Below are positions 1 to 27,577 of a stretch of DNA of 33,982 bases, in pieces. The notes below the pieces were generated by a model. It ran no database searches and had not been told where the DNA came from. It was given only the letters and a program-made list of their open reading frames with translations. Every line of letters begins with the position of its first letter. Positions within the stretch are counted from its first letter, which is position 1. This DNA is from Nemertoderma westbladi (Eukaryota; Animalia; Xenacoelomorpha): NCBI GenBank assembly GCA_032718475.1, contig JAUCBJ010006443.1, positions 1-33,982 on the forward strand, in the 5' to 3' direction. The position numbers and the translations under genes are program-made.

Positions 1-3000
1 TACCTGTTGGTTGTACTCCAGTGACACCCCCCACCTACCTGTTGGTTGTACTCCAGTGACACCCCCCACCTACATGTTGGCTGTACTCCAGTGACACCCC
101 CCACCTACCTGTTGGTTGTACTCCAGTAACACCCCCCACATACCTGTTGGTTGTACTCCAGTAACACCCCCCACATACCTGTTGGTTGTACTCCAGTGAC
201 ACCCCCCACCTACCTGTTGGTTGTACTCCAGTGACACCCCCCACATACCTGTTGGTTGTACTCCAGTAACACCCTCCACATACCTGTTGGCTGTACTCCA
301 GTGACACCCCCCACCTACCTGTTGGTTGTACTCCAGTGACACCCCCCACCTACATGTTGGCTGTACTCCAGTGACACCCCCCACCTACCTGTTGGTTGTA
401 CTCCAGTGACACCCCCCACATACCTGTTGGTTGTACTCCAGTGACACCCACCACAAACCTGTTGGTTGTACTCCAGTGACACCCCCCACATACCTGTTGG
501 TTGTACTCCAGTGACACCCCCCACATACCTGTTGGTTGTACTCCAGTAACACCCCCCACATACCTGTTGGTTGTACTCCAGTGACACCCCCCACCTACCT
601 GTTGGTTGTACTCCAGTGACACCCCCCACATACCTGTTGGTTGTACTCCAGTAACACCCCCCACATACCTGTTGGTTGTACTCCAGTAACACCCCCCACA
701 TACCTGTTGGTTGTACTCCAGTGACACCCCCCACCTACCTGTTGGTTGTACTCCAGTGACATCCCCCACATACCTGTTGGTTGTACTCCAGTAACACCCT
801 CCACATACCTGTTGGTTGTACTCCAGTGACACCCCCCACCTACCTGTTGGTTGTACTCCAGTAACACCCCCCACATACCTGTTGGTTGTACTCCAGTGAC
901 ACCCCCCACATACCTGTTGGTTGTACTCCAGTAACACCCCCCACCTACCTGTTGGTTGTACTCCAGGGACCCCACCCCACATACCTGTTGGTTGTACTCC
1001 AGTGACACCCACCCAAACCTGTTGGTTGTACTCCAGTGACACCCCCCACATACCTGTTGGTTGTACTCCAGGGACCCCACCCCACATACCTGTTGGTTGT
1101 ACTCCAGGGACCCCACCCCACATACCTGTTGGTTGTACTCCAGTGACACCCACCCAAACCTGTTGGTTGTACTCCAGTGACACCCCCCACATACCTGTTG
1201 GTTGTACTCCAGGGACCCCACCCCACATACCTGTTGGTTGTACTCCAGTGACACCCACCCAAACCTGTTGGTTGTACTCCAGTGACACCCCCCACATACC
1301 TGTTGGTTGTACTCCAGTGACACCCACCCAAACCTGTTGGTTGTACTCCAGTAACACCCCCCACATACCTGTTGGTTGTACTCCAGTGACACCCCCCACA
1401 TACCTGTTGGTTGTACTCCAGTGGCACCCCCCACCTACCTGTTGGTTGTACTCCAGTGACACCCCCCACATACCTGTTGGTTGTACTCCAGTGACACCCC
1501 CCACATACCTGTTGGTTGTACTCCAGGGACCCCACCCCACCTACCTGTTGGTTGTACTCCAGGGACAACAGCCCACATACCTGTTGGTTGTACTCCAGTG
1601 ACACCCACCACAAACCTGTTGGTTGTACTCCAGTGACACCCCCCACATACCTGTTGGTTGTACTCCAGTGACACCCACCACAAACCTGTTGGTTGTACTC
1701 CAGTGACACCCTCCACATACCTGTTGGTTGTACTCCAGTAACACCCCCACATACCTGTTGGTTGTACTCCAGTAACACCCCCACATACCTGTTGGTTGTA
1801 CTCCAGTGACACCCCCCACCTACCTGTTGGTTGTACTCCAGTGACACCCCCCACATACCTGTTGGTTGTACTCCAGTGACACCCCCCACATACCTGTTGG
1901 TTGTACTCCAGTGACACCCCCCACATACCTGTTGGTTGTACTCCAGTGACACCCTCCACATACCTGTTGGTTGTACTCCAGTGACACCCCCCACATACCT
2001 GTTGGTTGTACTCCAGTGACACCCCCCACATACCTGTTGGTTGTACTCCAGTGACACCCCCCACATACATGTTGGTTGTACTCCAGTGACACCCTCCACA
2101 TACCTGTTGGCTGTACTCCAGTGACACCCCCCACATACCTGTTGGTTGTACTCCAGTGACACCCCCCACATACCTGTTGGTTGTACTCCAGTGACACCCC
2201 CCACATACCTGTTGGTTGTACTCCAGTGACCCCTCCCCCCCATACATGTTGGCTGTACTCCAGTGACACCCCCCACCTACCTGTTGGCTGTACTCCAGTG
2301 ACACCCACCCAAACCTGTTGGTTGTACTCCAGTGACCCCTCCCCCCCATACATGTTGGCTGTACTCCAGTGACACCCCCCACCTACCTGTTGGCTGTACT
2401 CCAGTGACACCCACCCAAACCTGTTGGTTGTACTCCAGTGACCCCTCCCCCCCATACCTGTTGGCTGTACTCCAGTGACACCCCCCACCTACCTGTTGGT
2501 TGTACTCCAGTGACACCCCCCACATACCTGTTGGTTGTACTCCAGTGACACCCCCCACATACATGTTGGTTGTACTCCAGTGACACCCTCCACATACCTG
2601 TTGGTTGTACTCCAGTGACACCCCCCACATACCTGTTGGTTGTACTCCAGTGACACCCCCCACATACCTGTTGGTTGTACTCCAGTGACCCCTCCCCCCC
2701 ATACATGTTGGCTGTACTCCAGTGACACCCCCCACCTACCTGTTGGTTGTACTCCAGTGACACCCCCCACATACCTGTTGGTTGTACTCCAGTGACACCC
2801 CCCACATACCTGTTGGTTGTACTCCAGTGACACCCTCCCACATACCTGTTGGTTGTACTCCAGTGACACCCTCCACATACCTGTTGGCTGTACTCCAGTG
2901 ACACCCCCCACATACCTGTTGGTTGTACTCCAGTGACCCCTCCCCCCCATACATGTTGGCTGTACTCCAGTGACACCCCCCACCTACCTGTTGGCTGTAC

Positions 3001-5252
3001 TCCAGTGACACCCACCCAAACCTGTTGGTTGTACTCCAGTGACACCCCCCACATACCTGTTGGTTGTACTCCAGTGACACCCCCCACATACCTGTTGGTT
3101 GTACTCCACTGACACCCCCCACATACATGTTGGTTGTACTCCAGTGACACCCCCCACCTACCTGTTGGCTGTACTCCAGTGACCCCTCCCCCCCATACAT
3201 GTTGGCTGTACTCCAGTGACACCCCCCACATACCTGTTGGTTGTACTCCACTGACACCCCCCACATACCTGTTGGCTGTACTCCAGTGACACCCACCCAA
3301 TACCTGTTGGTTGTACTCCAGTGACACCCCCCACCTACCTGTTGGCTGTACTCCAGTGACCCCTCCCCCCCATACATGTTGGCTGTACTCCAGTGACACC
3401 CCCCACATACCTGTGGGTTGTACTCCAGTGACACCCCCCACCTACCTGTTGGTTGTACTCCAGGGACCCCTCCCCCATACATGTTGGTTGTACTCCAGTG
3501 ACACCCCCCACATACCTGTTGGTTGTACTCCACTGACACCCCCCAGATACCTCTTGGTTGTACTCCAGTGACACCCCCCACCTACATGTTGGTTGTACTC
3601 CAGTGACACCCCCCACATACCTGTTGGTTGTACTCCAGTGACCCCTCCCCCCCATATATGTTGGCTGTACTCCAGTGACATCCACCCAAACCTGTTGGCT
3701 GTACTCCAGTGACACCCCCCACATACCTGTTGGTTGTACTCCAGTGACACCCCCCATCTACCTGTTGGCTGTACTCCAGTGACACCCACCCAAACCTGTT
3801 GGTTGTACTCCAGTGACATCCCCCACATACCTGTTGGTTGTACTCCACTGACACCCCCCACATACCTGTTGGTTGTACTCCAGTGACACCCCCCACATAC
3901 CTGTTGGTTGTACTCCAGTGACACCCCCCACATACCTGTTGGTTGTACTCCAGTGACACCCCCCACATACCTGTTGGTTGTACTCCACTGACACCCCCCA
4001 CATACCTGTTGGTTGTACTCCACTGACACCCCCCACATACCTGTTGGTTGTACTCCAGTGACACCCCCCACCTACCTGTTGGTTGTACTCCAGTAACACC
4101 CCCACATACCTGTTGGTTGTACTCCACTGACACCCCCCACATACCTGTTGGTTGTACTCCACTGACACCCCCCACATACCTGTTGGTTGTACTCCAGTGA
4201 CACCCCCCACCTACCTGTTGGTTGTACTCCAGTAACACCCCCACATACCTGTTGGTTGTACTCCAGTGACACCCCCCACCTACCTGTTGGTTGTACTCCA
4301 GTAACACCCCCACATACATGTTGGTTGTACTCCACTGACACCCCCCACATACCTGTTGGTTGTACTCCAGTGACACCCCCCACCTACCTGTTGGTTGTAC
4401 TCCAGTAACACCCCCACATACCTGTTGGTTGTACTCCAGTGACACCCCCCACCTACCTGTTGGTTGTACTCCAGTAACACCCCCACATACCTGTTGGTTG
4501 TACTCCACTGACACCCCCCACATACCTGTTGGTTGTACTCCACTGACACCCCCCACATACCTGTTGGTTGTACTCCAGTGACACCCCCCACCTACCTGTT
4601 GGTTGTACTCCAGTAACACCCCCACATACATGTTGGTTGTACTCCAGTGACACCCCCACCTACCTGTTGGTTGTACTCCAGTGACCCCTCCCCCCCATAT
4701 ATGTTGGTTGTACTCCAGTGACATCCACCCAAACATGTTGGCTGTACTCCAGTGACACCCCCCACATACCTGTTGGTTGTACTCCAGTGACACCTCCCAC
4801 CTACCTGTTGGCTGTACTCCAGTGACACCCCCCACATACATGTTGGTTGTACTCCAGTGACACCCCCCACATACCTGTTGGTTGTACTCCAGTAACACCC
4901 CCCACATACCTGTTGGTTGTACTCCAGTGACACCCCCCACATACATGTTGGTTGTACTCCAGTGACACTCCCCACATACCTGTTGGTTGTACTCCAGGGA
5001 CCCCACCCCACATACCTGTTGGTTGTACTCCAGTAACACCCCCCCCCCCCCCACATACCTGTTGATTGAACTCCAGTAACACCCCCACCTACCTGTTGGT
5101 TGTACTCCAGTGACACCCCCACCTACCTGTTGGTTGTACTCCAGTGACCCCCCCCCCCCCCCATACATGTTGGCTGTACTCCAGTGACCCCCCCCCCCCA
5201 CCTGTTGGCTGTACTCATGTGACACTCCCCCCATACCTGTTGGTTGTACTCC
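1..5252 (-). repeat. 35-bp tandem minisatellite (~150 copies, runs off window start) derived from the exon/intron junction of the SIK exon at 5388-5237
   Basis: Plus-strand unit TACCTGTTGGTTGTACTCCAGTGACACCCCCCACA with 34-36 bp variants. On the minus strand it reads GGAGTACAACCAACAG|GTATGTGGGGGGTGTCACT, i.e. the last 16 exon nt plus ~19 intron nt. Confidence 0.97.
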
Positions 5253-5388
5253 TGTGGCTGTTCTTCTATTGGTACAGTGTGTGGCTCCCGTCCAACCGCC
5301 TGGGTCCATCTGTGTTTCCTTATTTGAATGGCTGTAAGTCGTCTGTTGGGATCCACAACCAACATTCGTCGAATTAAATGCTCGCAAT
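5237..5388 (-). CDS. SIK2: SIK2-like kinase exon (end of kinase domain, linker, start of UBA region)
   Basis: Acceptor ...TTTGGTTACCGTAG at 5390-5389, donor CAG|GTATGG at 5236. The 152 nt give (D)CEHLIRRMLVVDPNRRLTAIQIRKHRW...QEYNQQ, matching SIK-family DCEHLIRRMLVLDP. Phase fits the preceding exon (G|AT = Asp). Confidence 0.9.
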
Positions 5389-5645
5389 CTACGGTAACCA
5401 AAGAAACGAAATACTGAATGACTAATTAACAGATACATTTTACTTATTTACTTACAAGTAACTTTTTTAAAAGTCGAATTTTTGAGAGCTTGAGATCGGA
5501 TGAGTTAAAAGATATTTTATAAAGTTTCACCCGAATCTTTACACTGTATCTCTTTATTTCCTCTGTACTTGTTTTTCTACTTACCTTGCAAATATGGCCA
5601 AATGTCTCATCTACCAGGCCATATAATGAAGTCTATGGTACTAAA

Positions 5646-5929
5646 ATTAATTAGATTAATTAATTAATTAGATTAATTAATTAATTAGATTAATTAATTA
5701 ATTAATTAGATTAATTAATTAATTAGATTAATTAATTAATTAGATTAATTAATTAATTAGATTAATTAATTAATTAGATTAATTAATTAATTAGATTAAT
5801 TAATTAATTAGATTAATTAATTAATTAGATTAATTAATTAATTAGATTAATTAATTAATTAGATTAATTAATTAATTAGATTAATTAATTAATTAGATTA
5901 ATTAATTAATTAGATTAATTAATTAATTA
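5646..5929. repeat. 17-bp AT-rich minisatellite G(ATTA)4, ~17 copies
   Basis: Near-perfect GATTAATTAATTAATTA tandem units. Confidence 0.95.
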
Positions 5930-6141
5930 TAGTATAGTAGGTTTTAGTAGTAGTAGTAGTAGTTAGTAGTAGTAGTAGTAGTTAGTAGTAGTATAGTAGG
6001 TAGTAGTAGTATAGTAGTTTTAGTAGTAGTAGTAGTAGTTAGTAGTAGTAGTAGTAGTATTAGTAGTAGTATAGTAGTTTAGTAGTAGTAGTAGTAGTTT
6101 TAGTAGTAGTAGTAGTAGGTTTAGTAGTAGTAGTAGTAGTT

Positions 6142-6178
<37 letters not shown>

Positions 6179-6243
6179 GTAGTAGTAGTAGTAGTAGTAG
6201 GTAGTAGTAGTAGTAGTAGTAGTTGTAGTAGTAGTAGTAGTAG

Positions 6244-6289
<46 letters not shown>

Positions 6290-7325
6290 GTAGTAGTAGT
6301 AGTAGTAGTAGGTTTAGTAGTAGTAGTAGTTAGTAGTAGTAGTAGTAGTAGTAGTTGTAGTAGTAGTAGTAGTAGGGTTAGTAGTAGTAGTAGTAGTTGT
6401 AGTAGTAGTAGTAGTAGGTTGTAGTAGTAGTATAGTAGTATTAGTAGTAGTATAGTAGGTAGTAGTAGTAGTAGTAGTAGGTTTAGTAGTAGTAGTAGTT
6501 GGTAGTAGTAGTAGTAGTAGTTAGTAGTAGTAGTAGTAGTAGTAGGTAGTAGTAGTAGTAGTAGTAGGTAGTAGTAGTAGTAGTAGTAGGTAGTAGTAGT
6601 AGTAGTAGTAGGGTTTAGTAGTAGTAGTAGTAGGTTGTAGTAGTAGTATAGTAGGTAGTAGTAGTAGTAGTAGTAGGTAGTAGTAGTAGTAGTAGTAGGT
6701 AGTAGTAGTAGTAGTAGTAGGTAGTAGTAGTAGTAGTAGTAGTTGTAGTAGTAGTAGTAGTAGTATTAGTAGTAGTATAGTAGGTAGTAGTAGTAGTATA
6801 GTAGTAGTTAGTAGTAGTAGTAGTAGGTAGTAGTAGTAGTAGTAGTAGTTGTAGTAGTAGTAGTAGTAGGTATTAGTAGTAGTAGTAGTAGTTGTAGTAG
6901 TAGTATAGTAGGTAGTAGTAGTAGTAGTAGTAGTTTTAGTAGTAGTATAGTAGGTAGTAGTAGTAGTAGTAGTAGGTTTTAGTAGTAGTATAGTAGGGTA
7001 GTAGTAGTAGTAGTATGGTAGTAGTAGTAGTAGTTAGTTTAGTAGTAGTAGTAGTAGGTTTTAGTAGTAGTATAGTAGGTTTTAGTAGTAGTATAGTAGG
7101 TTTTAGTAGTAGTAGTAGTAGGTTTTAGTAGTAGTATAGTAGGTTTTAGTAGTAGTAGTAGTAGTTTTAGTAGTAGTAGTAGTAGGTAGTAGTAGTAGTA
7201 TAGTAGGTTTTAGTAGTAGTATAGTAGGTTTTAGTAGTAGTAGTAGTAGGTTTTAGTAGTAGTATAGTAGGTTTTAGTAGTAGTAGTAGTTGGTTTTAGT
7301 AGTAGTATAGTTGGTTTTAGTTTAG
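5929..7325. repeat. Long degenerate (TAG)n/(CTA)n microsatellite, ~1.4 kb
   Basis: Continuous TAG triplets interrupted by TAGG, TTTT and TATAG variants. Confidence 0.97.
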
Positions 7326-7724
<399 letters not shown>

Positions 7725-10700
7725 TTAAAGTAATAAAATAAATAATGAGACTATATTACGTGTTATATCGTGTTAGTAGTTAGTTGCTATGCGGTGTCTC
7801 AAGCGCACCACCTTGTCCTTGTGCTACTGGGATAGATACTAGGATACTCTAAATGCGAGGTTCAGTCCGCAACTGTTTCGCCGACGCAACGATGAGCGAC
7901 TTAGTTGCTCATTGGGGAGCAAATAAGTGTTGGATAGTGATGAGAGATGAACCTTGGGAGTAAAAGTGCCTCACTCTATGCGTCACAAGGTAAGAACAAA
8001 GGAGACCCGCAATATAATAAACGGCATCCTCATGTATCAATAATGGCGTCTATGGCAGTAATCAAACACTTACCATTAGATCTCTGTGCACCACTTTGTG
8101 GTTGTGGCAGTAATCAAACACTTACCATTAGATCTCTGTGCACCACTTTGTGGTTGTGGCAGTAATCAAACACTTACCATTAGATCTCTGTGCACCACTT
8201 TGTGGTTGTGGCAGTAATCAAACACTTACCATTAGATCTCTGTGCACCACTTTGTGGTTGTGGCAGTAAGCAAACACTTACCATTAGATCTCTGTGCACC
8301 ACTTTGTGGTTGTGGCAGTAATCAAACACTTACCATTAGATCTCTGTGCACCACTTTGTGGTTGTGGCAGTAATCAAACACTTACCATTAGATCTCTGTG
8401 CACCACTTTGTGGTTGTGGCAGTAATCAAACACTTACCATTAGATCTCTGTGCACCACTTTGTGGTTGTGGCAGTAATCAAACACTTACCATTAGATCTC
8501 TGTGCACCACTTTGTGGTTGTGACAATAATCAAACACTTACCATTAGATCTCTGTGCACCACCTTGCGGCTGTGGCAGTAATCGAACACTTACCTTTAGA
8601 TCTCTGTGCACCACTTTGTGGTTGTGGCAATAATCAAACACTTACCATTAGATCTCTGTGCACCACTTTGTGGTTGTGGCAGTAATCGAACACTTACCTT
8701 TAGATCTCTGTGCACCACTTTGTGGTTGTGGCAATAATCAAAAACTTACCATTAGATCTCTGTGCACCACTTTGTGGTTGTGGCAGTAATCAAACACTTA
8801 CCATTAGATCTCTGTGCACCACTTTGTGGTTGTGGCAATAATCAAACACTTACCATTAGATCTCTGTGCACCACTTTGTGGTTGTGGCAGTAATCAAACA
8901 CTTACCATTAGATCTCTGTGCACCACTTTGTGGTTGTGGCAATAATCAAACACTTACCATTAGATCTCTGTGCACCACTTTGTGGTTGTGGCAATAATCA
9001 AACACTTACCATTAGATCTCTGTGCACCACTTTGTGGTTGTGGCAATAATCAAACACTTACCATTAGATCTCTGTGCACCACTTTATGGTTGTGGCAATA
9101 ATCAAACACTTACCATTAGATCTCTGTGCACCACTTTGTGGTTGTGGCAATAATCAAACACTTACCATTAGATCTCTGTGCACCACTTTGTGGTTGTGGC
9201 AATAATCAAACACTTACCATTAGATCTCTGTGCACCACTTTGTGGTTGTGGCAATAATCAAACACTTACCATTAGATCTCTGTGCACCACTTTATGGTTG
9301 TGGCAATAATCAAACACTTACCATTAGATCTCTGTGCACCACTTTGTGGTTGTGACAATAATCAAACACTTACCATTAGATCTCTGTGCACCACCTTGCG
9401 GCTGTGGCAGTAATCGAACACTTACCTTTAGATCTCTGTGCACCACTTTGTGGTTGTGGCAATAATCAAACACTTACCATTAGATCTCTGTGCACCACCT
9501 TGTGGTTGTGGCAGTAATCAAACACTTACCATTAGATCTCTGTGCACCACTTTGTGGTTGTGGCAATAATCAAACACTTACCATTAGATCTCTGTGCACC
9601 ACTTTGTGGTTGTGGCAGTAATCAAAAACTTACCATTAGATCTCTGTGCACCACATTGTGGTTGTGGCAGTAATCAAACACTTACCATTAGATCTCTGTG
9701 CACCACTTTGTGGTTGTGGCAGTAATCAAACACTTACCATTAGATCTCTGTGCACCACTTTGTGGTTGTAGCAATAATCAAACACTTACCATTAGATCTC
9801 TGTGCACCACTTTGTGGTTGTGGCAGTAATCAAACACTTACCATTAGATCTCTGTGCACCACTTTGTGGTTGTGGCAGTAATCAAACACTTACCATTAGA
9901 TCTCTGTGCACCACTTTGTGGTTGTGGCAGTAATCAAACACTTACCATTAGATCTCTGTGCACCACTTTGTGGTTGTGGCAGTAATCAAACACTTACCAT
10001 TAGATCTCTGTGCACCACTTTGTGGTTGTGGCAGTAATCAAACACTTACCATTAGATCTCTGTGCACCACTTTGTGGTTGTGGCAGTAATCAAACACTTA
10101 CCATTAGATCTCTGTGCACCACTTTGTGGTTGTGGCAGTAATCAAACACTTACCATTAGATCTCTGTGCACCACCTTACGGCTGTGGCTGTAATCAAACA
10201 CTTACCATTAGATCTCTGTGCACCACTTTGTGGTTGTGGCAGTAATCAAACACTTACCATTAGATCTCTGTGCACCACTTTGTGGTTGTGGCAATAATCA
10301 AAAACTTACCATTAGATCTCTGTGCACCACTTTGTGGTTGTGGCAGTAATCAAACACTTACCATTAGATCTCTGTGCACCACTTTGTGGTTGTGGCAATA
10401 ATCAAAAACTTACCATTAGATCTCTGTGCACCACTTTGTGGTTGTGGCAGTAATCAAACACTTACCATTAGATCTCTGTGCACCACTTTGTGGTTGTGAC
10501 AATAATCAAACACTTACCATTAGATCTCTGTGCACCACTTTGTGGTTGTGGCAGTAATCAAACACTTACCATTAGATCTCTGTGCACCACCTTGTGGCTG
10601 TGGCAGTAATCCAACACTTACCATTAGATCTCTGTGCACCACTTTGTGGTTGTGGCAGTAATCAAACACTTTCCATTAGATCTCTGTGCACCACCTTGTG

Positions 10701-12974
10701 GCTGTGGCAGTAATCCAACACTTACCATTAGATCTCTGTGCACCACCTTGTGGCTGTGGCAGTAATCCAACACTTACCATTAGATCTCTGTGCACCACCT
10801 TGTGGCTGTGGCAGTAATCCAACACTTACCATTAGATCTCTGTGCACCACTTTGTGGTTGTGGCAGTAATCAAACACTTACCATTAGATCTCTGTGCACC
10901 ACTTTGTGGTTGTGGCAGTAATCAAACACTTACCATTAGATCTCTGTGCACCACTTTGTGGTTGTGGCAGTAATCAAACACTTACCATTAGATCTCTGTG
11001 CACCACTTTGTGGTTGTGGCAGTAATCAAACACCTACCATTAGATCTCTGTGCACCACGTTGTGGTTGTGGCAGTAATCAAACACTTACCATTAGATCTC
11101 TGTGCACCACTTTGTGGTTGTGGCAGTAATCAAACACTTACCATTAGATCTCTGTGCACCACTTTGTGGTTGTGGCAGTAATCAAACACCTACCATTAGA
11201 TCTCTGTGCACCACGTTGTGGTTGTGGCAGTAATCAAACACTTACCATTAGATCTCTGTGCACCACTTTGTGGTTGTGGCAGTAATCAAACACTTACCAT
11301 TAGATCTCTGTGCACCACTTTGTGGTTGTGGCAGTAATCAAACACTTACCATTAGATCTCTGTGCACCACTTTGTGGTTGTGGCAATAATCAAACACTTA
11401 CCATTAGATCTCTGTGCACCACTTTGTGGTTGTGGCAGTAATCAAACACCTACCATTAGATCTCTGTGCACCACGTTGTGGTTGTGGCAGTAATCAAACA
11501 CTTACCATTAGATCTCTGTGCACCACTTTGTGGTTGTGGCAGTAATCCAACACTTACCATTAGATCTCTGTGCACCACTTTGTGGTTGTGGCAGTAATCA
11601 AACACTTACCATTAGATCTCTGTGCACCACTTTGTGGTTGTGGCAGTAATCAAACACTTACCATTAGATCTCTGTGCACCACCTTGTGGTTGTGGCAATA
11701 ATCAAACACTTACCATTAGATCTCTGTGCACCACTTTGTGGTTGTGGCAGGAATCAAAAACTTACCATTAGATCTCTGTGCACCACTTTGTGGTTGTAGC
11801 AGTAATCAAACACTTACCATTAGATCTCTGTGCACCACTTTGTGGTTGTGGCAATAATCAAACACTTACCATTAGATCTCTGTGCACCACTTTGTGGTTG
11901 TGGCAGGAATCAAAAACTTACCATTAGATCTCTGTGCACCACTTTGTGGTTGTGGCAGTAATCAAACACTTACCATTAGATCTCTGTGCACCACTTTGTG
12001 GTTGTGGCAATAATCAAACACTTACCATTAGATCTCTGTGCACCACTTTGTGGTTGTGGCAGGAATCAAAAACTTACCATTAGATCTCTGTGCACCACTT
12101 TGTGGTTGTAGCAGTAATCAAACACTTACCATTAGATCTCTGTGCACCACTTTGTGGTTGTGACAATAATCAAACACTTACCATTAGATCTCTGTGCACC
12201 ACTTTGTGGTTGTGGCAGTAATCAAACACTTACCATTAGATCTCTGTGCACCACTTTGTGGTTGTGGCAATAATCAAACACTTACCATTAGATCTCTGTG
12301 CACCACTTTGTGGTTGTGGCAGGAATCAAAAACTTACCATTAGATCTCTGTGCACCACTTTGTGGTTGTAGCAGTAATCAAACACTTACCATTAGATCTC
12401 TGTGCACCACTTTGTGGTTGTGACAATAATCAAACACTTACCATTAGATCTCTGTGCACCACTTTGTGGTTGTGGCAGTAATCAAACACTTACCATTAGA
12501 TCTCTGTGCACCACTTTGTGGTTGTGGCAGTAATCAAACACTTACCATTAGATCTCTGTGCACCACTTTGTGGTTGTGGCAGTAATCAAACACTTACCAT
12601 TAGATCTCTGTGCACCACCTTGTGGTTGTGGCAGTAATCAAACACTTACCATTAGATCTCTGTGCACCACTTTGTGGTTGTGGCAGTAATCAAACACTTA
12701 CCATTAGATCTCTGTGCACCACTTTGTGGTTGTGGCAATAATCAAACACTTACCATTAGATCTCTGTGCACCACTTTGTGGTTGTGGCAGTAATCAAACA
12801 CTTACCATTAGATCTCTGTGCACCACTTTGTGGTTGTGGCAATAATCAAACACTTACCATTAGATCTCTGTGCACCACTTTGTGGTTGTGGCAGTAATCA
12901 AACACTTACCATTAGATCTCTGTGCACCACTTTATGGTTGTGGCAGTAATCCAACACTTACCATTAGATCTCTG

Positions 12975-13149
12975 TTTGGTACGAGATGAAAGTGTTTATA
13001 AATATAGTGTCATCCATCCCTGTTACAATGTTGTTCTAGAAAGTTTAAGTGCATAGTGTAGCCGTGGCGGGAAATTCAAAAGGTGATATACAGTCTAGAC
13101 CGTAGGAAATAAGATACCGGTAGAAATTTGAATTAGTTATAACATAGTG
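12975..13149 (+). repeat. 175-bp insert in the 52-bp array, copy of 18116-18290
   Basis: TTTGGTACGAGATGAAAG...TTATAACATAGTG, identical by eye to 18116-18290. It replaces ~22 bp of one repeat unit. Confidence 0.93.
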
Positions 13150-13999
13150 TAATCAAACACTTACCATTAGATCTCTGTGCACCACTTTGTGGTTGTGGCA
13201 GTAATCAAACACTTACCATTAGATCTCTGTGCACCACTTTGTGGTTGTGGCAGTAATCAAACACTTACCATTAGATCTCTGTGCACCACTTTGTGGTTGT
13301 GGCAATAATCAAAAACTTACCATTAGATCTCTGTGCACCACCTTGTGGTTGTGGCAGTAATCAAACACTTACCATTAGATCTCTGTGCACCACCTTGTGG
13401 TTGTGACAGTAATCAAACACTTACCATTAGATCTCTGTGCACCACCTTGTGGCTGTGGCAGTAATCAAACACTTACCATTAGATCTCTGTGCACCACTTT
13501 GTGGTTGTGGCAATAATCAAACACTTACCATTAGATCTCTGTGCACCACCTTGTGGTTGTGGCAGTAATCAAACACTTACCATTAGATCTCTGTGCACCA
13601 CTTTGTGGTTGTGGCAGTAATCAAACACTTACCATTAGATCTCTGTGCACCACTTTGTGGTTGTGGCAATAATCAAACACTTACCATTAGATCTCTGTGC
13701 ACCACTTTGTGGTTGTGGCAGGAATCAAAAACTTACCATTAGATCTCTGTGCACCACTTTGTGGTTGTGGCAATAATCAAAAACTTACCATTAGATCTCT
13801 GTGCACCACTTTGTGGTTGTGGCAATAATCAAACACTTACCATTAGATCTCTGTGCACCACTTTGTGGTTGTGGCAGGAATCAAAAACTTCTCTGTGCAC
13901 CACTTTGTGGTTGTGGCAGTAATCCAACACTTACCATTAGATCTCTGTGTACCACTTTGTGGTTGTGGCAGTAATCCAACACTTACCATTAGATCTCTG

Positions 14000-14174
14000 T
14001 TTGGTACGAGATGAAAGTGTTTATAAATATAGTGTCATCCATCCCTGTTACAATGTTGTTCTAGAAAGTTTAAGTGCATAGTGTAGCCGTGGCGGGAAAT
14101 TCAAAAGGTGATATACAGTCTAGACCGTAGGAAATAAGATACCGGTAGAAATTTGAATTAGTTATAACATAGTG
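14000..14174 (+). repeat. Second copy of the 175-bp insert
   Basis: Same sequence and same junctions as 12975-13149, 1025 bp downstream. Confidence 0.93.
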
Positions 14175-17100
14175 TAATCAAACACTTACCATTAGATCTC
14201 TGTGCACCACTTTGTGGTTGTGGCAGTAATCAAACACTTACCATTAGATCTCTGTGCACCACTTTGTGGTTGTGGCAGTAATCAAACACTTACCATTAGA
14301 TCTCTGTGCACCACTTTGTGGTTGTGGCAGTAATCAAACACTTACCATTAGATCTCTGTGCACCACTTTGTGGTTGTGGCAATAATCAAACACTTACCAT
14401 TAGATCTCTGTGCACCACTTTGTGGTTGTGACAGTAATCAAACACTTACCATTAGATCTCTGTGCACCACTTTGTGGTTGTGGCAGTAATCAAACACTTA
14501 CCATTAGATCTCTGTGCACCACCTTGTGGTTGTGGCAATAATCAAACACTTACCATTAGATCTCTGTGCACCACTTTGTGGTTGTGGCAGGAATCAAAAA
14601 CTTACCATTAGATCTCTGTGCACCACTTTGTGGTTGTGGCAGTAATCAAACACTTACCATTAGATCTCTGTGCACCACCTTGTGGCTGTGGCAGTAATCC
14701 AACACTTACCATTAGATCTCTGTGCACCACTTTGTGGTTGTGGCAATAATCAAAAACTTACCATTAGATCTCTGTGCACCACCTTGTGGTTGTGGCAGTA
14801 ATCAAACACTTACCATTAGATCTCTGTGCACCACTTTGTGGTTGTGGCAGTAATCAAACACTTACCATTAGATCTCTGTGCACCACTTTGTGGTTGTGGC
14901 AGTAATCAAACACTTACCATTAGATCTCTGTGCACCACTTTGTGGTTGTGGCAATAATCAAACACTTACCATTAGATCTCTGTGCACCACCTTGTGGTTG
15001 TGGCAGTAATCAAACACTTACCATTAGATCTCTGTGCACCACTTTGTGGTTGTGGCAGTAATCAAACACTTACCATTAGATCTCTGTGCACCACTTTGTG
15101 GTTGTGGCAATAATCAAACACTTACCATTAGATCTCTGTGCACCACTTTGTGGTTGTGGCAGTAATCAAACACTTACCATTAGATCTCTGTGCACCACTT
15201 TGTGGTTGTGGCAGTAATCAAACACTTACCATTAGATCTCTGTGCACCACTTTGTGGTTGTGGCAGTAATCAAACACTTACCATTAGATCTCTGTGCACC
15301 ACTTTGTGGTTGTGACAGTAATCAAACACTTACCATTAGATCTCTGTGCACCACTTTGTGGTTGTGGCAATAATCAAACACTTACCATTAGATCTCTGTG
15401 CACCACTTTGCGGCTGTGGCAATAATCAAACACTTACCATTAGATCTCTGTGCACCACTTTGTGGTTGTGGCAGTAATCAAACACTTACCATTAGATCTC
15501 TGTGCACCACTTTGCGGCTGTGGCAATAATCAAACACTTACCATTAGATCTCTGTGCACCACTTTGTGGTTGTGGCAGTAATCAAACACTTACCATTAGA
15601 TCTCTGTGCACCACTTTGTGGTTGTGGCAATAATCAAACACTTACCATTAGATCTCTGTGCACCACCTTGTGGTTGTGGCAGTAATCAAACACTTACCAT
15701 TAGATCTCTGTGCACCACTTTGTGGTTGTGGCAGTAATCAAACACTTACCATTAGATCTCTGTGCACCACCTTGTGGTTGTGGCAATAATCAAACACTTA
15801 CCATTAGATCTCTGTGCACCACCTTGTGGTTGTGGCAATAATCAAACACTTACCATTAGATCTCTGTGCACCACCTTGTGGTTGTGGCAGTAATCAAACA
15901 CTTACCATTAGATCTCTGTGCACCACTTTGTGGTTGTGGCAGTAATCAAACACTTACCATTAGATCTCTGTGCACCACTTTGTGGTTGTGGCAGTAATCA
16001 AACACTTACCATTAGATCTCTGTGCACCACTTTGTGGTTGTGGCAATAATCAAACACTTACCATTAGATCTCTGTGCACCACTTTGTGGTTGTGGCAGTA
16101 ATCCAACACTTACCATTAGATCTCTGTGCACCACTTTGTGGTTGTGGCAGTAATCAAACACTTACCTTTAGATCTCTGTGCACCACTTTGCGGTTGTGGC
16201 AATAATCAAACACTTACCATTAGATCTCTGTGCACCACTTTGCGGCTGTGGCAATAATGAAACACTTACCATTAGATCTCTGTGCACCACTTTGTGGTTG
16301 TGGCAGTAATCAAACACTTACCATTAGATCTCTGTGCACCACTTTGCGGCTGTGGCAATAATCAAACACTTACCATTAGATCTCTGTGCACCACTTTGTG
16401 GTTGTGGCAGTAATCAAACACTTACCATTAGATCTCTGTGCACCACTTTGTGGTTGTGGCAATAATCAAACACTTACCATTAGATCTCTGTGCACCACCT
16501 TGTGGTTGTGGCAGTAATCAAACACTTACCATTAGATCTCTGTGCACCACTTTGTGGTTGTGGCAGTAATCAAACACTTACCATTAGATCTCTGTGCACC
16601 ACCTTGTGGTTGTGGCAATAATCAAACACTTACCATTAGATCTCTGTGCACCACCTTGTGGTTGTGGCAATAATCAAACACTTACCATTAGATCTCTGTG
16701 CACCACCTTGTGGTTGTGGCAGTAATCAAACACTTACCATTAGATCTCTGTGCACCACTTTGTGGTTGTGGCAGTAATCAAACACTTACCATTAGATCTC
16801 TGTGCACCACTTTGTGGTTGTGGCAGTAATCAAACACTTACCATTAGATCTCTGTGCACCACTTTGTGGTTGTGGCAATAATCAAACACTTACCATTAGA
16901 TCTCTGTGCACCACTTTGTGGTTGTGGCAGTAATCCAACACTTACCATTAGATCTCTGTGCACCACTTTGTGGTTGTGGCAGTAATCAAACACTTACCTT
17001 TAGATCTCTGTGCACCACTTTGCGGTTGTGGCAATAATCAAACACTTACCATTAGATCTCTGTGCACCACTTTGTGGTTGTGGCAATAATCAAACACTTA

Positions 17101-17621
17101 CCATTAGATCTCTGTGCACCACTTTGTGGTTGTGGCAGTAATCAAACACTTACCATTAGATCTCTGTGCACCACTTTGTGGTTGTGGCAGTAATCAAACA
17201 CTTACCATTAGATCTCTGTGCACCACGTTGTGGTTGTGGCAATAATCAAACACTTACCATTAGATCTCTGTGCACCACTTTGTGGTTGTGGCAGTAATCA
17301 AACACTTACCATTAGATCTCTGTGCACCACTTTGTGGTTGTGGCAATAATCAAACACTTACCATTAGATCTCTGTGCACCACTTTGTGGTTGTGGCAATA
17401 ATCAAACACTTACCATTAGATCTCTGTGCACCACTTTGTGGTTGTGGCAGGAATCAAAAACTTACCATTAGATCTCTGTGCACCACCTTGTGGTTGTGAC
17501 AATAATCAAACACTTACCATTAGATCTCTGTGCACCACCTTGCGGCTGTGGCAGTAATCGAACACTTACCTTTAGATCTCTGTGCACCACCTTGCGGCTG
17601 TGGCAGTAATCCAACACTTAC

Positions 17622-17737
17622 CTTTAGATCTCTGTGCACCACCTTGCGGCTGTGGCAGTAATCGACTGCTGATAATATCTGCCAGAATACTTTCCGAGCT
17701 TGATGTTCCGGCATTCGCCCCTTTCCAGCTAAATATT
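17622..17737 (-). CDS. SIK2: SIK2-like kinase exon ending in the catalytic loop HRDLK
   Basis: Acceptor TTTTATTTATTTTATAG at 17739-17738, donor AAG|GTAAGT at 17621. The 116 nt give (E)[38 protein letters not shown], which joins in phase 0 to AENLLL of the next exon. Confidence 0.93.
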
Positions 17738-18049
17738 CTATAAAATAAATAAAATATTTCCTTTTTACATTAGAAATGGAACAAATTACGCAATATAACG
17801 ATACGATATAACTATATCATCGCCCGAGACTAGCACCCTTGTGACTCAAAGTCGCCAGGGCGACATATTTTCAAAATTTACATCACACTGCGACATTATT
17901 TCTCAGTATGTCCCTACGCCATGCATTTACTATAATATGTCCACATTGTCCAGTATATCACCGCGTCATTATTCTTACATTAGTACAATTACATTGGAAT
18001 ACAAACTATAACAAAATTCACAATAATTATTCCAAAACAAAAATGTAAT

Positions 18050-18115
18050 TGGGGAGAATCGAATCAGCGGCCTTTACATTAGTAACCCGACGCGAAATCT
18101 ACTACGCTACGCTAA
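18050..18115 (-). other. Degenerate tRNA-like (SINE head-like) sequence
   Basis: Minus strand GTAGCGTAGTAG...GCTGATTCGATTCTCCCC has imperfect A-box-like and B-box-like motifs at tRNA spacing. Confidence 0.3.
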
Positions 18116-18516
18116 TTTGGTACGAGATGAAAGTGTTTATAAATATAGTGTCATCCATCCCTGTTACAATGTTGTTCTAGAAAGTTTAAGTGCATAGTGT
18201 AGCCGTGGCGGGAAATTCAAAAGGTGATATACAGTCTAGACCGTAGGAAATAAGATACCGGTAGAAATTTGAATTAGTTATAACATAGTGACAGCAACAG
18301 ATTCTATTTTATTAACCTTGCATTGACTTAATTATCGCATCGCCACAATAGTTACAATTAATTCCCCACAAATAAATAAATTTACATTCGCCCCGTTGTT
18401 CATAATTCAGCACTTTAAAGCTTTTACGGCCCTTGTTTTGTTATTTTTAAGGAATAATGACGTATATAGTTATTATTATGTGGTGAAGTAGAAATAGCCA
18501 GATATGCCTCATATAT

Positions 18517-18778
18517 TTAATTATAGGAACTGGTCTAGGGGTCTTAATAATGAATGAATGATAAGTTTATTTTACCCAAAATAATTTAATCTTTTATTGG
18601 CGCAATTGTAGGACTAATCCCACCACATGCGTACTTTTTAACCGGAATTGAAATTAATATCTCATATCTCTCCAAACCACGTACGCATTTCGACCTTACT
18701 GGGTCTCATCAGCCTGGTGTCGGATTCGAACCTGGGACCTCGAGGTGGAAGCCAAGACAACAACCACTAGGCCACAGG
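18517..18778 (-). mobile_element. tRNA-headed SINE-like element with hammerhead motif (retrozyme/Sm-alpha-like organisation)
   Basis: Pol III A box TGGCCTAGTGG (18774-18764) and B box GGTTCGAATCC (18732-18722), followed directly by a hammerhead core. The body recurs inverted at 18809-19007. Confidence 0.6.
18676..18718 (-). ncRNA. Type I minimal hammerhead ribozyme motif (slightly degenerate)
   Basis: ACCAGG-CUGAUGA-GACC(CAGUAA)GGUC-GAAA-UGCG-UA|CGUGGU: intact core boxes, perfect 4-bp stem II, minimal stem III, GUA cleavage triplet, and stem I with one G.G mismatch. Confidence 0.7.
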
Positions 18779-18808
18779 TTCTTGAGATATGGAGTATTAA
18801 TTTCAAAG

Positions 18809-19007
18809 CCCAGTAAGGTCGAAATAAGTAAGGACGTGGTTTGGAGAGCTATGAGACATTAATTAATTGGAATATAAAAATTACGCGATTCTTAAATTTG
18901 TACAATACCCGGATAAAAAGTACGCATGTGATGGGATTAGTCCTACAATTGCGCAAATAAAAGATAAGTTATTTTATTTAAGACCCTAGACGAGTTCCTA
19001 TAATTAA
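18809..19007 (+). repeat. Inverted, 5'-truncated second copy of the SINE-like body (fold-back with 18517-18703)
   Basis: For example TTAATTATAGGAACTGGTCTAGGG vs CCCTAGACGAGTTCCTATAATTAA, and GCGCAATTGTAGGACTAATCCCA vs TGGGATTAGTCCTACAATTGCGC. Confidence 0.85.
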
Positions 19008-19074
19008 CTGTATATTAATAACACCTCGAAAATTATATCATCATTCATCATGATATTCGCCACAACACCTCGTT

Positions 19075-21202
19075 GTGGCAGAACCATCTGATCCGCGGGG
19101 TAACCCTGCAACCCACCCAATACCCGTATTGAACTGGTTTGCGGAACACCCTGTCGCTACCGTTTCGAACTGCCGCGCCGAATCGACGGAGATGTGGTCG
19201 ACGGGTGGATTTAGCCTCTACTGCTCTCGTCGGGGAAGAAGATCTTGGGTCTCCTCTCCACGATCTAGAGGCCTAATCGCTAAACTCTGTCTACTGTCTC
19301 TGGCTGGGGATGTTGAGACCAACCCAGGACCCAGCAGGACGCGGGCCCCGAAGATCAACTGTCCCGTCTGTCAACGAGCAAACTCTCGGAGTAAGATCGT
19401 CCAATGCGAGAGTTGTGACACATTTGTACATTTAAAATGTTACCGTAGGAAAAGCAGTAATTTATTCTCCACCAGAAACAATCTTGAACCAAGTTTTCTC
19501 TGCAATAGCTGTATTTTTACCGAACTTCCCTTTCATGATACTATTTTAGAATCAGAAACCGACGATTCATTCCTCACATCGCCTCTGCAAACTCCAAGTG
19601 ATGCTGAGAGTGAAACTTTTAAATTTTTTAGGAAAAAAGGTCTGCATTTTTTGCATTTAAACGCACGATCTCTGCTTCCCAAACTTTCCGAAATTCGTAT
19701 TTTAATCAATAAATCCAACCCAGCAGTTTTAACAATCTCTGAAACTTGGCTCGATGATAGTGTTTCTGATGGAGAAATTTATATTGATAATTACGTAGTT
19801 TTACGTAAGGATAGGGACAGACACGGTGGTGGTGTCTGTACTTACATTCAATGTGATTTAGCTTTTAATCGTAGGGAAGATTTAGAGACTTGTGACGAAG
19901 TTTTACTGGTGGAACTTTTACTTCCTAAAACTAAACCTATTTTAATCGGTACTTTATATCGACCCCCTAAACAATCGGATTTTTTGGAAAATTTTGAAAA
20001 TACAATTTTATGTAATCTTAGGTCAGACTGTGAAATATATTTCTTAGGTGATTTTAATATCTGTTACTATCACAAAGCATCCCCCATCTGTAAACAGTAC
20101 CAAAGTATTTTAAATTTGTTTGGTTTAAAACAAATTATTCGAGATTCTACCAGAATTACCAGTAAAACTTCTACTTTACTAGATCACATCCTTTGTAATA
20201 ATACCGATATTATTTCTCAATCTGGGGTTTTACCTATAGGTCTAAGCGATCATTTTATAGTTTTTTGTACAAGAAAGACACAAAAATCTTTTTTTGGGGA
20301 TCATAAAACAGTAACAGTTAGATCTATGAAAAATTACAGCAAGGAACGCTTTTTAAGTTTGTTAGTTAATTCTGACTGGGAACCCTGTTTTAAGGCTGCT
20401 GACATTAACCTTGCGTACACTGTTTTTAAAAATATATTTCTAAAGGCATTTAATACTGTAGCACCAATTAAAGAAATTAGTCTTAAACAACGCACTGAGC
20501 CCTGGATGACCTCGGGTATTCTTAGTAATATCAGAGAAAGAGATAACTATTTGTATAAATTTAGGAAATACCTTGTTTTAGCTGATTATAATAATTACTG
20601 CAAATATAGAAACCTTGTCCAACGGGAAATAAAAAAAGCTAAATCTGAATATTTGTACAACAAAATAAGTGAGAATAAAGATAATCCTAAAAGTCTATGG
20701 TCTACCCTAAAATCTTTAGGTTATAAAAACCTTAAATCTAAATCGAATATTGTTCTGCAAGATAACGGTGAGCTGATTCATGATCATACTCTAGTTAGTA
20801 ATTTATTTAATAATTATTTTACTAATGTTGCCTCTAATTTAGTTAAGAAGTTACCGTTACCAAGTAATAAATATAGTATAGGGTCCGAAACTCTAAATAA
20901 TTTTTATTTAGAAAAGTTACAAAATTCAGAAAAGTTATTTTTAAAACCCGTTTCTGAGGATTTCGTTTTTCCAAATCTATTTAGCCTATCAGCCTCAAAA
21001 AGTACCGGTCTAGACCTAATACCTGCCCGTTTTCTTAAGGATGGTGCTGAAGTACTTAAAGTGCCTATTACTTTTATTATTAATTACTCTATCGTAGATA
21101 ATGTAGTACCAGACGAACTGAAATTAGCTAAGGTTGTTCCTCTGTATAAAAAGAATAGTAAAGTAGAACCCTGTAATTACAGACCTGTTTGTATCTTAAG
21201 TA
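19075..21202 (+). pseudogene. LINE ORF part 1: 2A-like peptide, PHD-like finger, AP endonuclease, start of RT
   Basis: GDVETNPGP; CPVC..CESC...HLKC..CNSC; APE motifs LNARSL, SETWL, GGGV, YRPP, GDFN, LDHI, SDH; RT N-terminal KSTGLD, VVPLYKK, NYRPVCILS. First in-frame ATG is at 19192. Confidence 0.93.
19273..19332 (+). other. 2A-like ribosomal StopGo sequence LIAKLCLLSLAGDVETNPG|P
   Basis: Exact D(V/I)ExNPGP consensus preceded by a leucine-rich stretch. Confidence 0.88.
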
Positions 21203-22340
21203 TTTTTATTTTTATTTTTTTCACTGAACGTGATTAAATTATTATTATTCAATAATATGAGAAACCCACCACCAAACTAAAATATTTGCATATACAAATG
21301 TATTAATTAACCGTGAAAAAAACAAAGGGCGGGGGAAATTGAAATTTGTCAAGTTTGCTGTCTGTCTCCTTTCAAGTTAGGCTTGTGTCCGCATTGGCCA
21401 GACGGATGGATTCTTCGACCATGGCGTGGACAGGGCGCTTACGGGCTGACCTGGACCCGCATACACACATAAGGGAGGCCCGCAGCAGTGCAAAGTTCAG
21501 TTCTCGCCGAACCCAATTCATGCCCTCACTGTACCGTATCTCGCGGCGCTCCGCCAACTTTGAAGCGAGTTGCTTCACGAACAGCGTAGAGGAAGGTAAA
21601 GTACCCCCCAACGCGGAGAAGATGAGCGGAGTAAATGTAGTGTGCTCAACCTCTCGGATCTGTTCGAGATACTTATTGCGCTTCCGATTTTCGTGGAACA
21701 GATGGGCGGCGTCGAGATTCATAGCTGCGTTCGTCGGGGCAAGGGGGTTGAAAACGAAGACGTCGATATACGTCTTCTGATAGCGATTCCCCCAGAAACT
21801 GGAAACCGAAACGTCCAGTCGGGCTTGCTGGTCGACGGAAGTGGACGCGCGGACGAAATGCTCGCCAGTGATTGGCTGCAGGTGCGGCTCGATGACGACA
21901 TTATGGGCGACTTCCGTGAGGGTGGAGGCGACGAAATCCCATAATTCATTGTGCCTTATCGACAGATAACCGCCGGTGGGACAAGACAAGATATGGTTTA
22001 TAGAAAATCTTGTCCAACAAGCACAACGGGCGGGGAGCGACTCCGGTTGCCACCCATAATGCAAGCACAGCGCGTCGCGAAACTCCTCTTTACTGAGATG
22101 GGTATCGTGTAGAGTTATCGGGCGCACGTTGAGCCAGGCCGAGGCTCCAGGTTCAGCAACTAACTCCCTCAACTTCTGCTGATGTTCAGGTAAGTTGTAA
22201 CTGACCTTCTCTATTTTATCCTTTAAAGTTGGAACTGCCCTGGCCTTTAATCTTGTCACGATGTGTCGCTGGGCTTCCTTTATGGCCGCTGGGTTTTCCA
22301 GCTCCGTGTAGGGTTCGCAAATCAACCTAGAAGAAGAAGA
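21203..22340 (-). mobile_element. 5'-truncated CRE-like non-LTR retrotransposon (restriction-like endonuclease type)
   Basis: TSD ATCTTAAGTA(TT) at 21193 and 22341; A-rich tail on the minus strand at ~21203-21221. ORF 21372-22325 has a CxC..H..C knuckle and RH, ARLD, IDV, ExxKxxKY, FTPLIFSALGG motifs of RLE domains. Confidence 0.82.
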
Positions 22341-22458
22341 ATCTTAAGTATTGTATCTAAAATTCTAGAACGTTCTGTTTTTCTACAGCTGGAAGCACAT
22401 CTTAGTAGGCTAAATCTGATCTATGAACTTCAGTCCGGTTTTTGTAAATCATATTCTA
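22341..22458 (+). pseudogene. LINE ORF part 2 (RT segment between two insertions)
   Basis: ILSIVSKILERSVFLQLEAHL...QSGFCKSYS, in frame with parts 1 and 3 once the insertions are removed. Confidence 0.9.
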
Positions 22459-23102
22459 TGTGAGCAGATTCAATTCCCTACATTGCCCAGCCAAAATGGG
22501 ACCAGTGGCATTTTACCAATATAGTTGGCAATGCGAGATTACCAATAATAATCTCGTCTCATAACCAACTCGGGGGGGGGGGGGGGACACGCCCTAAGCC
22601 ACAGAGAGAGGTGAGAGGTCAAAGCACCTCAGAGGGACAACCCAGCTAGCGAGGCTAGCACCAGGGAGTAACACCTACAGGGAGTGGTGAAGTGACAATT
22701 AGTATATAAGCCAATAGCGGACATGGAAGCACGTGGGGAAGGACAGGAGGGCATCCATTGGGTATCAAAGGCCACAGTAGCGTAGAGCTGAAACCAATAT
22801 GTAGCAATCATATATTTACTCTAGTTACTGATTTACTGGTCAGTTGTTGATTATCACACAGTTGCGGACCGGCATAGTTTTGACCGTCATTTCATATGTG
22901 CTGCTGTCGTCATTTATGCTATACTGATTATTGTTACTATACCTGTATACATCTGACTATGCTATTATTTCTGAGATCATTAACACTGAGAAACAAACTC
23001 TGTTATTTTCCCCAATGGCCTTCGGCCAAAGATACCAGCCCAGCAGCCAAGTGACGCGTACAAATCTTACCCGGTCGGGATCTCAGACTCGATCCCGTCA
23101 CA
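22459..23102 (+). repeat. 5' LTR (644 bp)
   Basis: TGTGAGC...CCCGTCACA; direct repeat of 28392-29035. Confidence 0.93.
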
Positions 23103-24404
23103 GTCAAAACTACCAACACGAACTGTGACCACAACTCGAGGAGGAGGAAGAAAAGATGAGTGAACGACACCAGACGCCCCAGATTCCAGATGGAGAAAAA
23201 ACGCCACCGCGGACCCCGGACGACACCAACCAAATGATCCGAGAGGCTGCGACGAGGTGATACCATCCCGTCACCCCGGATTCGCCAGCGAGGGACGATC
23301 CGGATGCCCAAGCAGAGGGCGGCCGACGACAAAGAGGGAGAGATAACGAGGAGTCGACGCGAGACACCAACGGCGGTCGGAGTACCGAAGTCGCCGGCCA
23401 ACCACAGGCCGCGGGCGACAAACGGCCCACCGGAATGGCGATGGTGGGGCCGACGGTACGACGCTGGACGAGCAGGGCAGGTAGAGTCAACGAGGAGGAC
23501 GTCGGGACAAGTGATCGCCTGCGACGGGCCTACAACTCTACCAAGAAGATATTAAAAGAGGCCAAGGAAGGGAGAAAGGTAGACCAGCCTAAACTATATC
23601 AGAGGCTAAGTGAGTCTAATGAACACTTTCGCTACTTAGTCCGTTATGGACAGGGAGAACTGGCGAGTGAGAGGGCTAGGGGGGTCACCACATAACTGTT
23701 TGAATTGTGGCGATCCAAGGTGATGGAGGCGGACGTAGTGTACGTAGGGCCTTACTTAGTGGATGCCAGGGGAATTAAATTAGTGGGATGGGCGGACCCG
23801 CACGACGGCGAATCCAAGGTTAACCCCGATGATTCGGTGTCGTCGGTTAGTAGGAACCCCAGTAAACGGGGGGAAATTAGTAGGACAGAGAGGCGACGGG
23901 AGTCCGTCGCGACCGATAAGTCCGCTACATCCTCCGCGAAAGCAAGACGGGTGTTAGAGATAGATCTGGCGTGTCAATTAGACATTGTTGCGCTGGATCA
24001 AAAGGAACTGGAAAGGCAGTTAGATGAGGGAACTGCGTTGTTAGAGAGGGAGAGAGAATTAGCGAGAGAGTGTAAAGAGAGGGCCGAGAGGGTGGCGAGA
24101 AACTATAGGGAGCGGGAGGAGAGAGAGATGAACGAGCGTAGAGAGCGAAAGGCGAGGGAGACAGAGTTAGCCAACCAGAGTATGAGGGAGGATAGAGAGA
24201 GAGAGAGAGAGGGCGGGCAAGCGCTTGCGGGATGAAATGCATACCCAGTTGAGAGGGTTAATGCAATACCAAGCGAAACGAAAGTGCCGGTTAGAACTGG
24301 CGCGAATGGGTTTATCGGAGAGTGAGGCTGGTTCGGGTAGTATTTATGAGGAACAGGTACCGGACGACAGACCCAAGACCGTACGGATGGGGGGGGGGGG
24401 GGGG

Positions 24405-24660
24405 TAATAACAATACGCTTGGTGAAGTTAATATTAATAGTACCATAATAGATAACCCTAATCAAACCTTTTTTGCAGGAAATAATATTTTACCCGGTAA
24501 TAATAATCCTAATTTAAATGTGCAAAATAATTTAAATAATAATAGAAATAATACCGAACAAAATAATTTAAATAATTTAAACAATAATTCAAATAATAAT
24601 ATGATAAATATTAATGGCGTAGTAAACGAGGGTAAAATTATTAACGGTGCAATTAATACA
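24405..24660 (+). repeat. AAT-rich low-complexity tract (Asn-rich in one frame) inside the LTR element
   Basis: Repeated AATAAT/AATTTAAAT motifs, with an abrupt composition change after a G-run. Confidence 0.7.
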
Positions 24661-27388: not shown

Positions 27389-27577
27389 GAGTGGGGCGAA
27401 GTGTAAGAGGACCTATAGGGGGACAGTGGGAGAGTTGCCTGCTGCAAGAATCGCCCTTAGGATGTTGAGTCGTCCAATAAGTTGGACTGAGGGGGGTGGG
27501 AATGAGGGCGATACACCCTTCCCACAAATTAATAATATAAAATAATATATATAAAAAAAATAATATGAGTAGGTACA

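Follow-up and report, generated by a model that had tools for sequence, protein, structure and literature searches.

Why should three successive exons of a single gene each be followed by copies of their own 5′ splice site (donor), while their acceptors are left single? The question is raised by a stretch of 33,982 nucleotides from the xenacoelomorph Nemertoderma westbladi (assembly GCA_032718475.1, contig JAUCBJ010006443.1, positions 1 to 33,982; hereafter the window), the first 17,737 of which carry, on the minus strand, three exons of what is, judged by its sequence, a salt-inducible kinase (SIK) gene. Each donor lies inside a repeat unit that recurs in the following intron, and at two of the three donors the repeats form arrays of kilobases. 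Our preferred explanation, to which we give a probability of roughly 0.65, is that these are three independent minisatellites of the ‘mirage’ type known from lancelets, which arose across donors by ordinary means, are tolerated through first-donor splicing and, in two cases, have grown to kilobases. The exons and repeats concerned are as follows (a slash marks the exon end).

17622 to 17737, minus strand: SIK exon A, 116 nt, ending in the codons of the HRDLK catalytic loop; donor AAG/GTAAGT, phase 0
7415 to 7709, minus strand: SIK exon B, 295 nt, DFG motif and activation loop; donor CGG/GTGAGT, phase 1
5237 to 5388, minus strand: SIK exon C, 152 nt, end of the kinase domain and linker; donor CAG/GTATGG, phase 0
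8053 to 17663, minus strand: array A, a 52-bp donor-spanning minisatellite of 178 units including the real donor (Tandem Repeats Finder, TRF, and anchor counts)
7326 to 7444, minus strand: donor B duplication, 48 nt present twice (real 7397-7444, copy 7326-7373), 98% alike
1 to 5256, minus strand: array C, a 35-bp donor-spanning minisatellite with a variable G run, 149.7 copies by TRF and at least 150 units by anchor

Each exon is preceded by AG and followed by GT, and the three joined give a single open kinase frame. The best full-length named matches of exon B are of SIK2 type, at 82-86% identity (among 120 listed of 7,977 scored), and against solved structures this exon scores higher with SIK3 (174 bits) than with MARK (158 bits); the sole homology match of exon C is a turtle SIK2. 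On these comparisons the gene is closer to SIK than to MARK. The homology of two relatives (P0013 and P0029) ends at the same point as donor B, which suggests that this donor marks an old intron position. A tblastn search with six homologues found no further SIK exon upstream in 17738-33982, so that the intron upstream of exon A must exceed 16 kb. The intron between A and B holds 343 bases of unique, non-array sequence and a second intron 256, each with its own acceptor.

The three repeat units (52, 48 and 35 bp) are mutually unrelated in sequence and arose independently. Arrays A and C together fill 14,867 of the first 17,737 bases (84%), in agreement with a preliminary description of this DNA that had put the arrays at about 15 of 17.7 kb. 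When 40-nt probes were laid over the six junctions, the three donors scored 63-76 against downstream DNA; acceptor probes scored 20-26 over the whole window, against a mean of 21-26 and a maximum of 32 for shuffled probes, and none of the three acceptors (0/3) is copied. The claims of the preliminary description that a SIK gene carries three unrelated units, each straddling a donor, and that no acceptor is duplicated are thus borne out. Its copy numbers (at least 150, 2 and about 179) stand as counts, at 150 for C, 2 for B and 178 for A, but B is not the plain 48-bp repeat that it described, being interrupted and of 71-bp spacing. The downstream-only extension of the copies, which it also notes, is no sign of a directional mechanism, because use of the first donor puts every other copy in the intron by geometry alone.

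Array A consists of head-to-tail units of 42 exon and 10 intron bases, with the GT intact in 177 of 178. Array copy numbers in this paper are counts in the assembled sequence by a fixed anchor, with the real donor included; TRF gives 185 units for array A, two inserts being counted among them. Five of the 52 consensus bases depart from the exon sequence, one of them at donor position -2, where 171 of 178 units carry T in place of A, and interior units lie on average 2.1% from that consensus (176 of 178 units, the two broken by inserts being left out). Units 0-2 are 0-1 base off the exon and most interior units 4-7 off, while the distal end is an 11-base partial unit. There are 35 distinct unit variants, arranged in ordered blocks, and three tracts are signs of turnover:

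15437 to 17040 (ends approximate), minus strand: higher-order block duplication in array A, 15 consecutive units identical at a 16-unit (832 bp) lag
9344 to 9446, minus strand: 103-bp tract identical to exon-proximal units 1-3 of array A, about 8 kb from those units
8512 to 8614, minus strand: second 103-bp tract identical to exon-proximal units 1-3

The run of 15 units at lag 16 compares with a mean of 5 and a maximum of 8 in 100 shuffles of the unit order. Array A has thus undergone block duplication and homogenisation. The consensus of the array (8053-17621) would read Met in place of the catalytic-loop Lys of HRDLK, so that the array variants are the derived ones, and any gene conversion of the exon by the array would likely do damage.

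The array also contains a piece of foreign sequence, present twice (no strand is assigned to these three features):

12975 to 13149: 175-bp insert in array A, identical to 18116-18290
14000 to 14174: second copy of the insert, with the same junctions, 1025 bp away from the first
18116 to 18290: the stretch from which the insert was likely copied, lying 380-550 bases from the acceptor in the intron that precedes exon A

About 24 unit bases are replaced by the insert, there is about 1 base of overlap at its ends, and there is no target-site duplication. Since the two inserts are identical and share their junctions, the lost bases and the missing target-site duplication, it is likely that they go back to one recent template switch over at least 4 kb, later copied within the 1025-base block; the switch was presumably made at the level of DNA. 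The insert as a transposon was rejected on the absent target-site duplication, the loss of about 24 bases and a search of Rfam, where the 175-bp piece has no match of note; it may nevertheless belong to a dispersed repeat. Adjoining the template, the minus strand of 18052-18115 resembles by eye a tRNA-like or SINE-like (short interspersed nuclear element) head, without Rfam support. Together, the 16-unit block copy, the distant exon-like tracts, the homogenised interior and the pasted 175-bp piece point to DNA-level repair and unequal exchange, and not to RNA-mediated copying, as the means of array growth.

At donor B the two copies start 71 bp apart and are separated by 23 unshared bases; the repeated stretch comprises 30 exon and 18 intron bases, with the 9-base donor identical in the copy. 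From its sequence this would be either a 71-bp duplication whose second copy has been cut, or an interrupted 48-bp one. The 23-base spacer (7374-7396) holds, by eye, a further donor-like site with 7/9 consensus bases. Array C is again head to tail, in units of about 20 exon and 15 intron bases; as it runs off the start of the window, its 150 units, real donor included, are a lower bound. Homopolymer lengths differ among its first units. The GT is intact in 148 of 150 units of array C and in both copies at B. Scored against a 9-base donor consensus, 110 of the 150 C units match at 8/9 where the real donor C matches at 7/9, whereas 167 of the 178 A units score 7 against 8 for the real donor A. 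Relative to their real donors the decoys are therefore weaker in A, better matched in C and equal in B; with no consistent direction among the three, selection for or against decoy strength was rejected as an explanation.

Sequencing runs bear on the repeats and on their splicing. Twenty-three runs were listed as matching, four of which (X1, X2, X3 and X6) were compared with 7312-8052; X3 (share 0.29, with nothing on exon B) and 17 rows with shares of 0.07-0.24 were left out, and may match the TAG microsatellite of intron B-C. In each of the DNA runs X1 and X2, from two studies, the B duplication gives a loop contig of 101 bases, and a second contig, of 676 bases, runs from 7407. The extent of this second contig coincides with the unique-31-mer stretch of the window (7407-8082, 676 bases), so that X1 and X2 both show array A to be repetitive at its distal edge. 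The B duplication and this edge are therefore supported by reads, although X1 or X2 may be the window's own source data. Both runs are identical to the window over 7336-8052, including the 343 intron bases, which reflects low variation or related material.

Run X6 contributes one contig, of unrecorded library type, which is spliced and which we therefore read as transcript-derived. It covers 7415-7711 and leads on one side to sequence of exon C and on the other to that of exon A, with the exons in their usual order. Its junction out of exon B is at 7415, at the first donor, despite an identical 9-base donor 71 bases downstream: at exon B, in this one spliced contig, the most upstream of the identical donors is used. 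At exon A its end fits only the real donor (17622) or the first copy (17570); it runs 144 letters beyond, that is, 114 of exon A plus 30, and since 12 31-mers would occur twice if the first copy were used, which would likely break the contig, we infer that the real donor was used. Past exon C it extends for a further 317 letters, whereas a path along array C would repeat a 31-mer by 122 bases after the donor; exon C is thus likely spliced onward from its real donor or from one of the first copies. What a missed first donor would cost can be read from the frame. The first in-frame stops after the donors lie at +100 (A), +6 (B) and +112 (C), and decoys before these stops shift the frame, so that every decoy donor is either out of frame with the real donor or beyond an in-frame stop. 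Stray decoy-spliced RNA is therefore likely to be removed by nonsense-mediated decay. In-frame use of decoys as a coding extension was rejected on the same stops and frameshifts; with the first three C decoys the result hinges on the exon that follows, beyond the window.

Although the preliminary description recognised no named system, one exists. Passages of PMC3087553 describe the ‘mirage’ minisatellites of lancelets as tandem duplications of exon-intron boundaries, both 5′ and 3′, with units of 10-160 bp, normal splicing, length instability and homogenised interiors. They occur in the globins BflGb6, where they are of acceptor type and number 3-6 copies, and BflGb9; passages citing Canestro et al. 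(2002) add Adh3, and those of PMC3902484 add troponin C and PGBD5, the latter with repeats of 2-7 and 3-6 copies directly next to the 5′ splice sites of two consecutive exons. The SIK repeats closely resemble these. All three units span an exon-intron boundary and repeat its splice signal, their lengths of 35, 52 and 71 bp (48 of the latter shared) lie in the 10-160 bp range, A and C run head to tail, with B interrupted by its 23 unshared bases, and the interior of array A is homogenised with its boundary units excluded. In one contig, where rare forms would not show, splicing is seen to be regular at B and is probably so at A, while at C it may start from the real donor or from one of the first copies. 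SIK also shares with PGBD5, as there described, that several junctions of one gene are affected. The SIK repeats differ from those passages in number (178 and at least 150 copies, against 2-7 in the globins and PGBD5, though the supplements of the papers may list more), in sitting at donors in all three cases where lancelets have both donors and acceptors, and in the foreign 175-bp insert within array A.

How such copies can be carried without damage is suggested by intron 7 of human F7. According to PMC1557585, its 37-bp variable number tandem repeat offers five to nine identical donors, and in 50 constructs splicing used the most upstream one exclusively, even against stronger downstream sites. 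There, as at SIK, the first unit spans the donor and the downstream units hold functional-looking 5′ pseudo-sites, and upstream-most use is what we see at exon B. F7 differs in having five to nine units, tested by constructs, where SIK has up to 178, in three successive introns, known from sequence and one contig. A second precedent fits less well: the Rogers model, as summarised in PMC3087553, derives intron gain from the tandem duplication of an AG/GT-containing exon piece and shares with SIK a duplication that copies splice signals, but the SIK copies sit in existing introns, copy no acceptor and make no new intron. Intron gain by tandem duplication was accordingly rejected, as each intron keeps a unique part (343 and 256 bases) and its own acceptor. 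The passages of PMC10078293 link human repeats to splicing variation, and the donor-spanning class is absent from them. Our literature search, in a collection with few subscription journals, turned up neither a genome-wide test for enrichment at junctions nor a ‘mirage’ described under that name outside lancelets.

We therefore propose the following course of events for the SIK gene. Short duplications across a splice donor would have arisen, likely by ordinary slippage or template-switch repair; they would likely have survived since the first donor is the one used in splicing, with no change to the mRNA; and two of them would then have expanded to kilobases, at least partly by block duplication. 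A copy lying wholly within an exon would break the protein, so that the only exon-holding repeats to survive should be those lying across a junction. Since the acceptor chosen tends to be the first AG, short copies straddling an acceptor would more often be harmful, and short units would tilt to donors. In favour of an ordinary origin, the locus also makes repeats away from its junctions, with six in the upstream intron and the following two in the intron between B and C (no strand assigned):

5645 to 5929: 17-bp AT-only tandem repeat (TRF), not junction-derived
5945 to 7311: TAG microsatellite (TRF), not junction-derived, beginning just past the cut end of the second B copy

Several points weigh against this reading. 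A neutral filter clears exons of repeats but does not enrich junctions. The six other duplications of the 16.2-kb upstream intron (60-173 bp) cover about 4% of its positions, and at that background three of three donors would be hit with a probability of about 7e-5, before correction for the choice of window. The support for splicing is a single contig, and as contigs drop rare forms, a leak to decoys would be invisible in it.

The figure of 7e-5 is also the best argument for an alternative that we hold to be possible but doubtful, namely that repeats are born preferentially at junctions: repair or recombination would start in conserved transcribed exons and slip at exon ends, so that junctions seed arrays far above background, with tolerance and growth as in our preferred reading. 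Routes to this would be co-transcriptional R-loops, pausing at the donor, or a strand invasion that breaks off once intron sequences diverge. The 175-bp piece, pasted from a local template with about 1 base of overlap at its ends, makes it likely that template-switch repair has been active here; the transcript strand is G-rich in array C (GC skew +0.39); and PMC3087553 calls the origin of mirages ‘unclear’. Yet the window was chosen for its repeat pattern from some 250,000, which makes all chance figures post hoc; the background is a tiny sample of six events, four of them inside one long terminal repeat (LTR) element; and if donors and acceptors are equally prone and three of six junctions are hit, an all-donor outcome has p = 0.05. 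The claim of the preliminary description that three of three is unlikely by chance thus stands at the local background, and is blunted by the picked window, the small sample and this marginal donor-only figure. GC skew is weak in B (+0.18) and A (+0.11), and no unit folds clearly better than its shuffles in any of six folds (z -0.64 to +1.34), on which ground hairpin-driven slippage was rejected. A role for G-quadruplexes was rejected as well, with one motif in array C and none in A or B. The agreement of X1 and X2 with the window over 7336-8052 gives no sign of high allelic divergence, and the acceptor mirages of PMC3087553 speak against a process confined to donors. An R-loop or break repair at the donor, as the preliminary description proposed, may have been involved.

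Two further explanations seem to us far less probable. One is that the decoys have a selected function, binding U1 small nuclear ribonucleoprotein, shielding long introns from premature polyadenylation, or tuning SIK through RNA decay. The intact GT of nearly all A and C units would be expected on this account, as would the better match of most C units to the donor consensus; however, ten exon-derived positions of unit A outside the anchor are likewise without deviation from the consensus, so that its GT is not specially conserved, array A drifts to a weaker donor, B has two copies only, and introns of about 0.3 kb without their arrays (343 unique bases between A and B) leave little to protect. 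We give it very little credence, and no more to the suggestion that the genome holds far shorter arrays or that assembly inflated them. It is true that array C, and the copy numbers of A and C, are taken from the assembly and that homopolymer lengths vary in the first C units. However, the B loop and the 676-base contig reaching the repetitive edge of array A occur in both X1 and X2 (one of them perhaps the source of the window), and 35 unit variants in ordered blocks would be hard to obtain by collapse or looping.

The intron upstream of exon A contains other elements. A long interspersed nuclear element (LINE) lies in three parts, at 19054-21204, 22330-22458 and 29039-30250, with a PHD finger, an endonuclease and a reverse transcriptase; its named relatives, at 43-54% identity, are in oyster, clam, brittle star, feather star, lobster and a fish. 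Two sequences interrupt it, a reverse-strand fragment at about 21205-22343 that is unrelated to it and matches nothing in Pfam, and an LTR element at 22459-29038, whose LTRs are 92% identical and which has a 5-base target-site duplication, gag- and protease-like pieces and many broken frames; no reverse transcriptase was found among the open reading frames scanned. Four local duplications of 60-113 bp lie within the LTR element, and the two others found in this intron away from the SIK junctions, at 30697-31046 (155-bp unit) and 32131-32429 (126 bases at 173 spacing), are both older. Nested inverted repeats at 18511-19013, with arms of up to 57 nt and 95% complementary, resemble a foldback element or a miniature inverted-repeat transposable element (MITE).

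The SIK arrays are thus known in kind and unusual in size; what is new is their copy number and the intron piece of 175 bp pasted into one of them. They are an extreme case of a known oddity, in which two introns of about 0.3 kb of unique sequence have grown mainly from copies of their own donors. The F7 rule, by which the donor furthest upstream prevails, is here stretched from 9 rival sites to 178, with decoys in array C that are better matched than the real site, and the 175-bp piece likely records a recent template switch within an array as it grew. PMC3087553 describes the origin of mirages as unclear, and the locus can serve as a test case for it. A broader view, which we offer as speculative and consider rather unlikely, is that exon ends are preferentially duplicated, by repair- or transcription-linked processes, in this animal and in many marine invertebrates: junctions, donors above all, would then be where minisatellites mainly start and would account for much of the growth of introns, and a strict first-donor rule would allow hundreds of intact decoys to be tolerated, some better matched than the real donor. 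If repeats are indeed born preferentially at junctions, the architecture of splice sites would be linked to mutation and to intron size.

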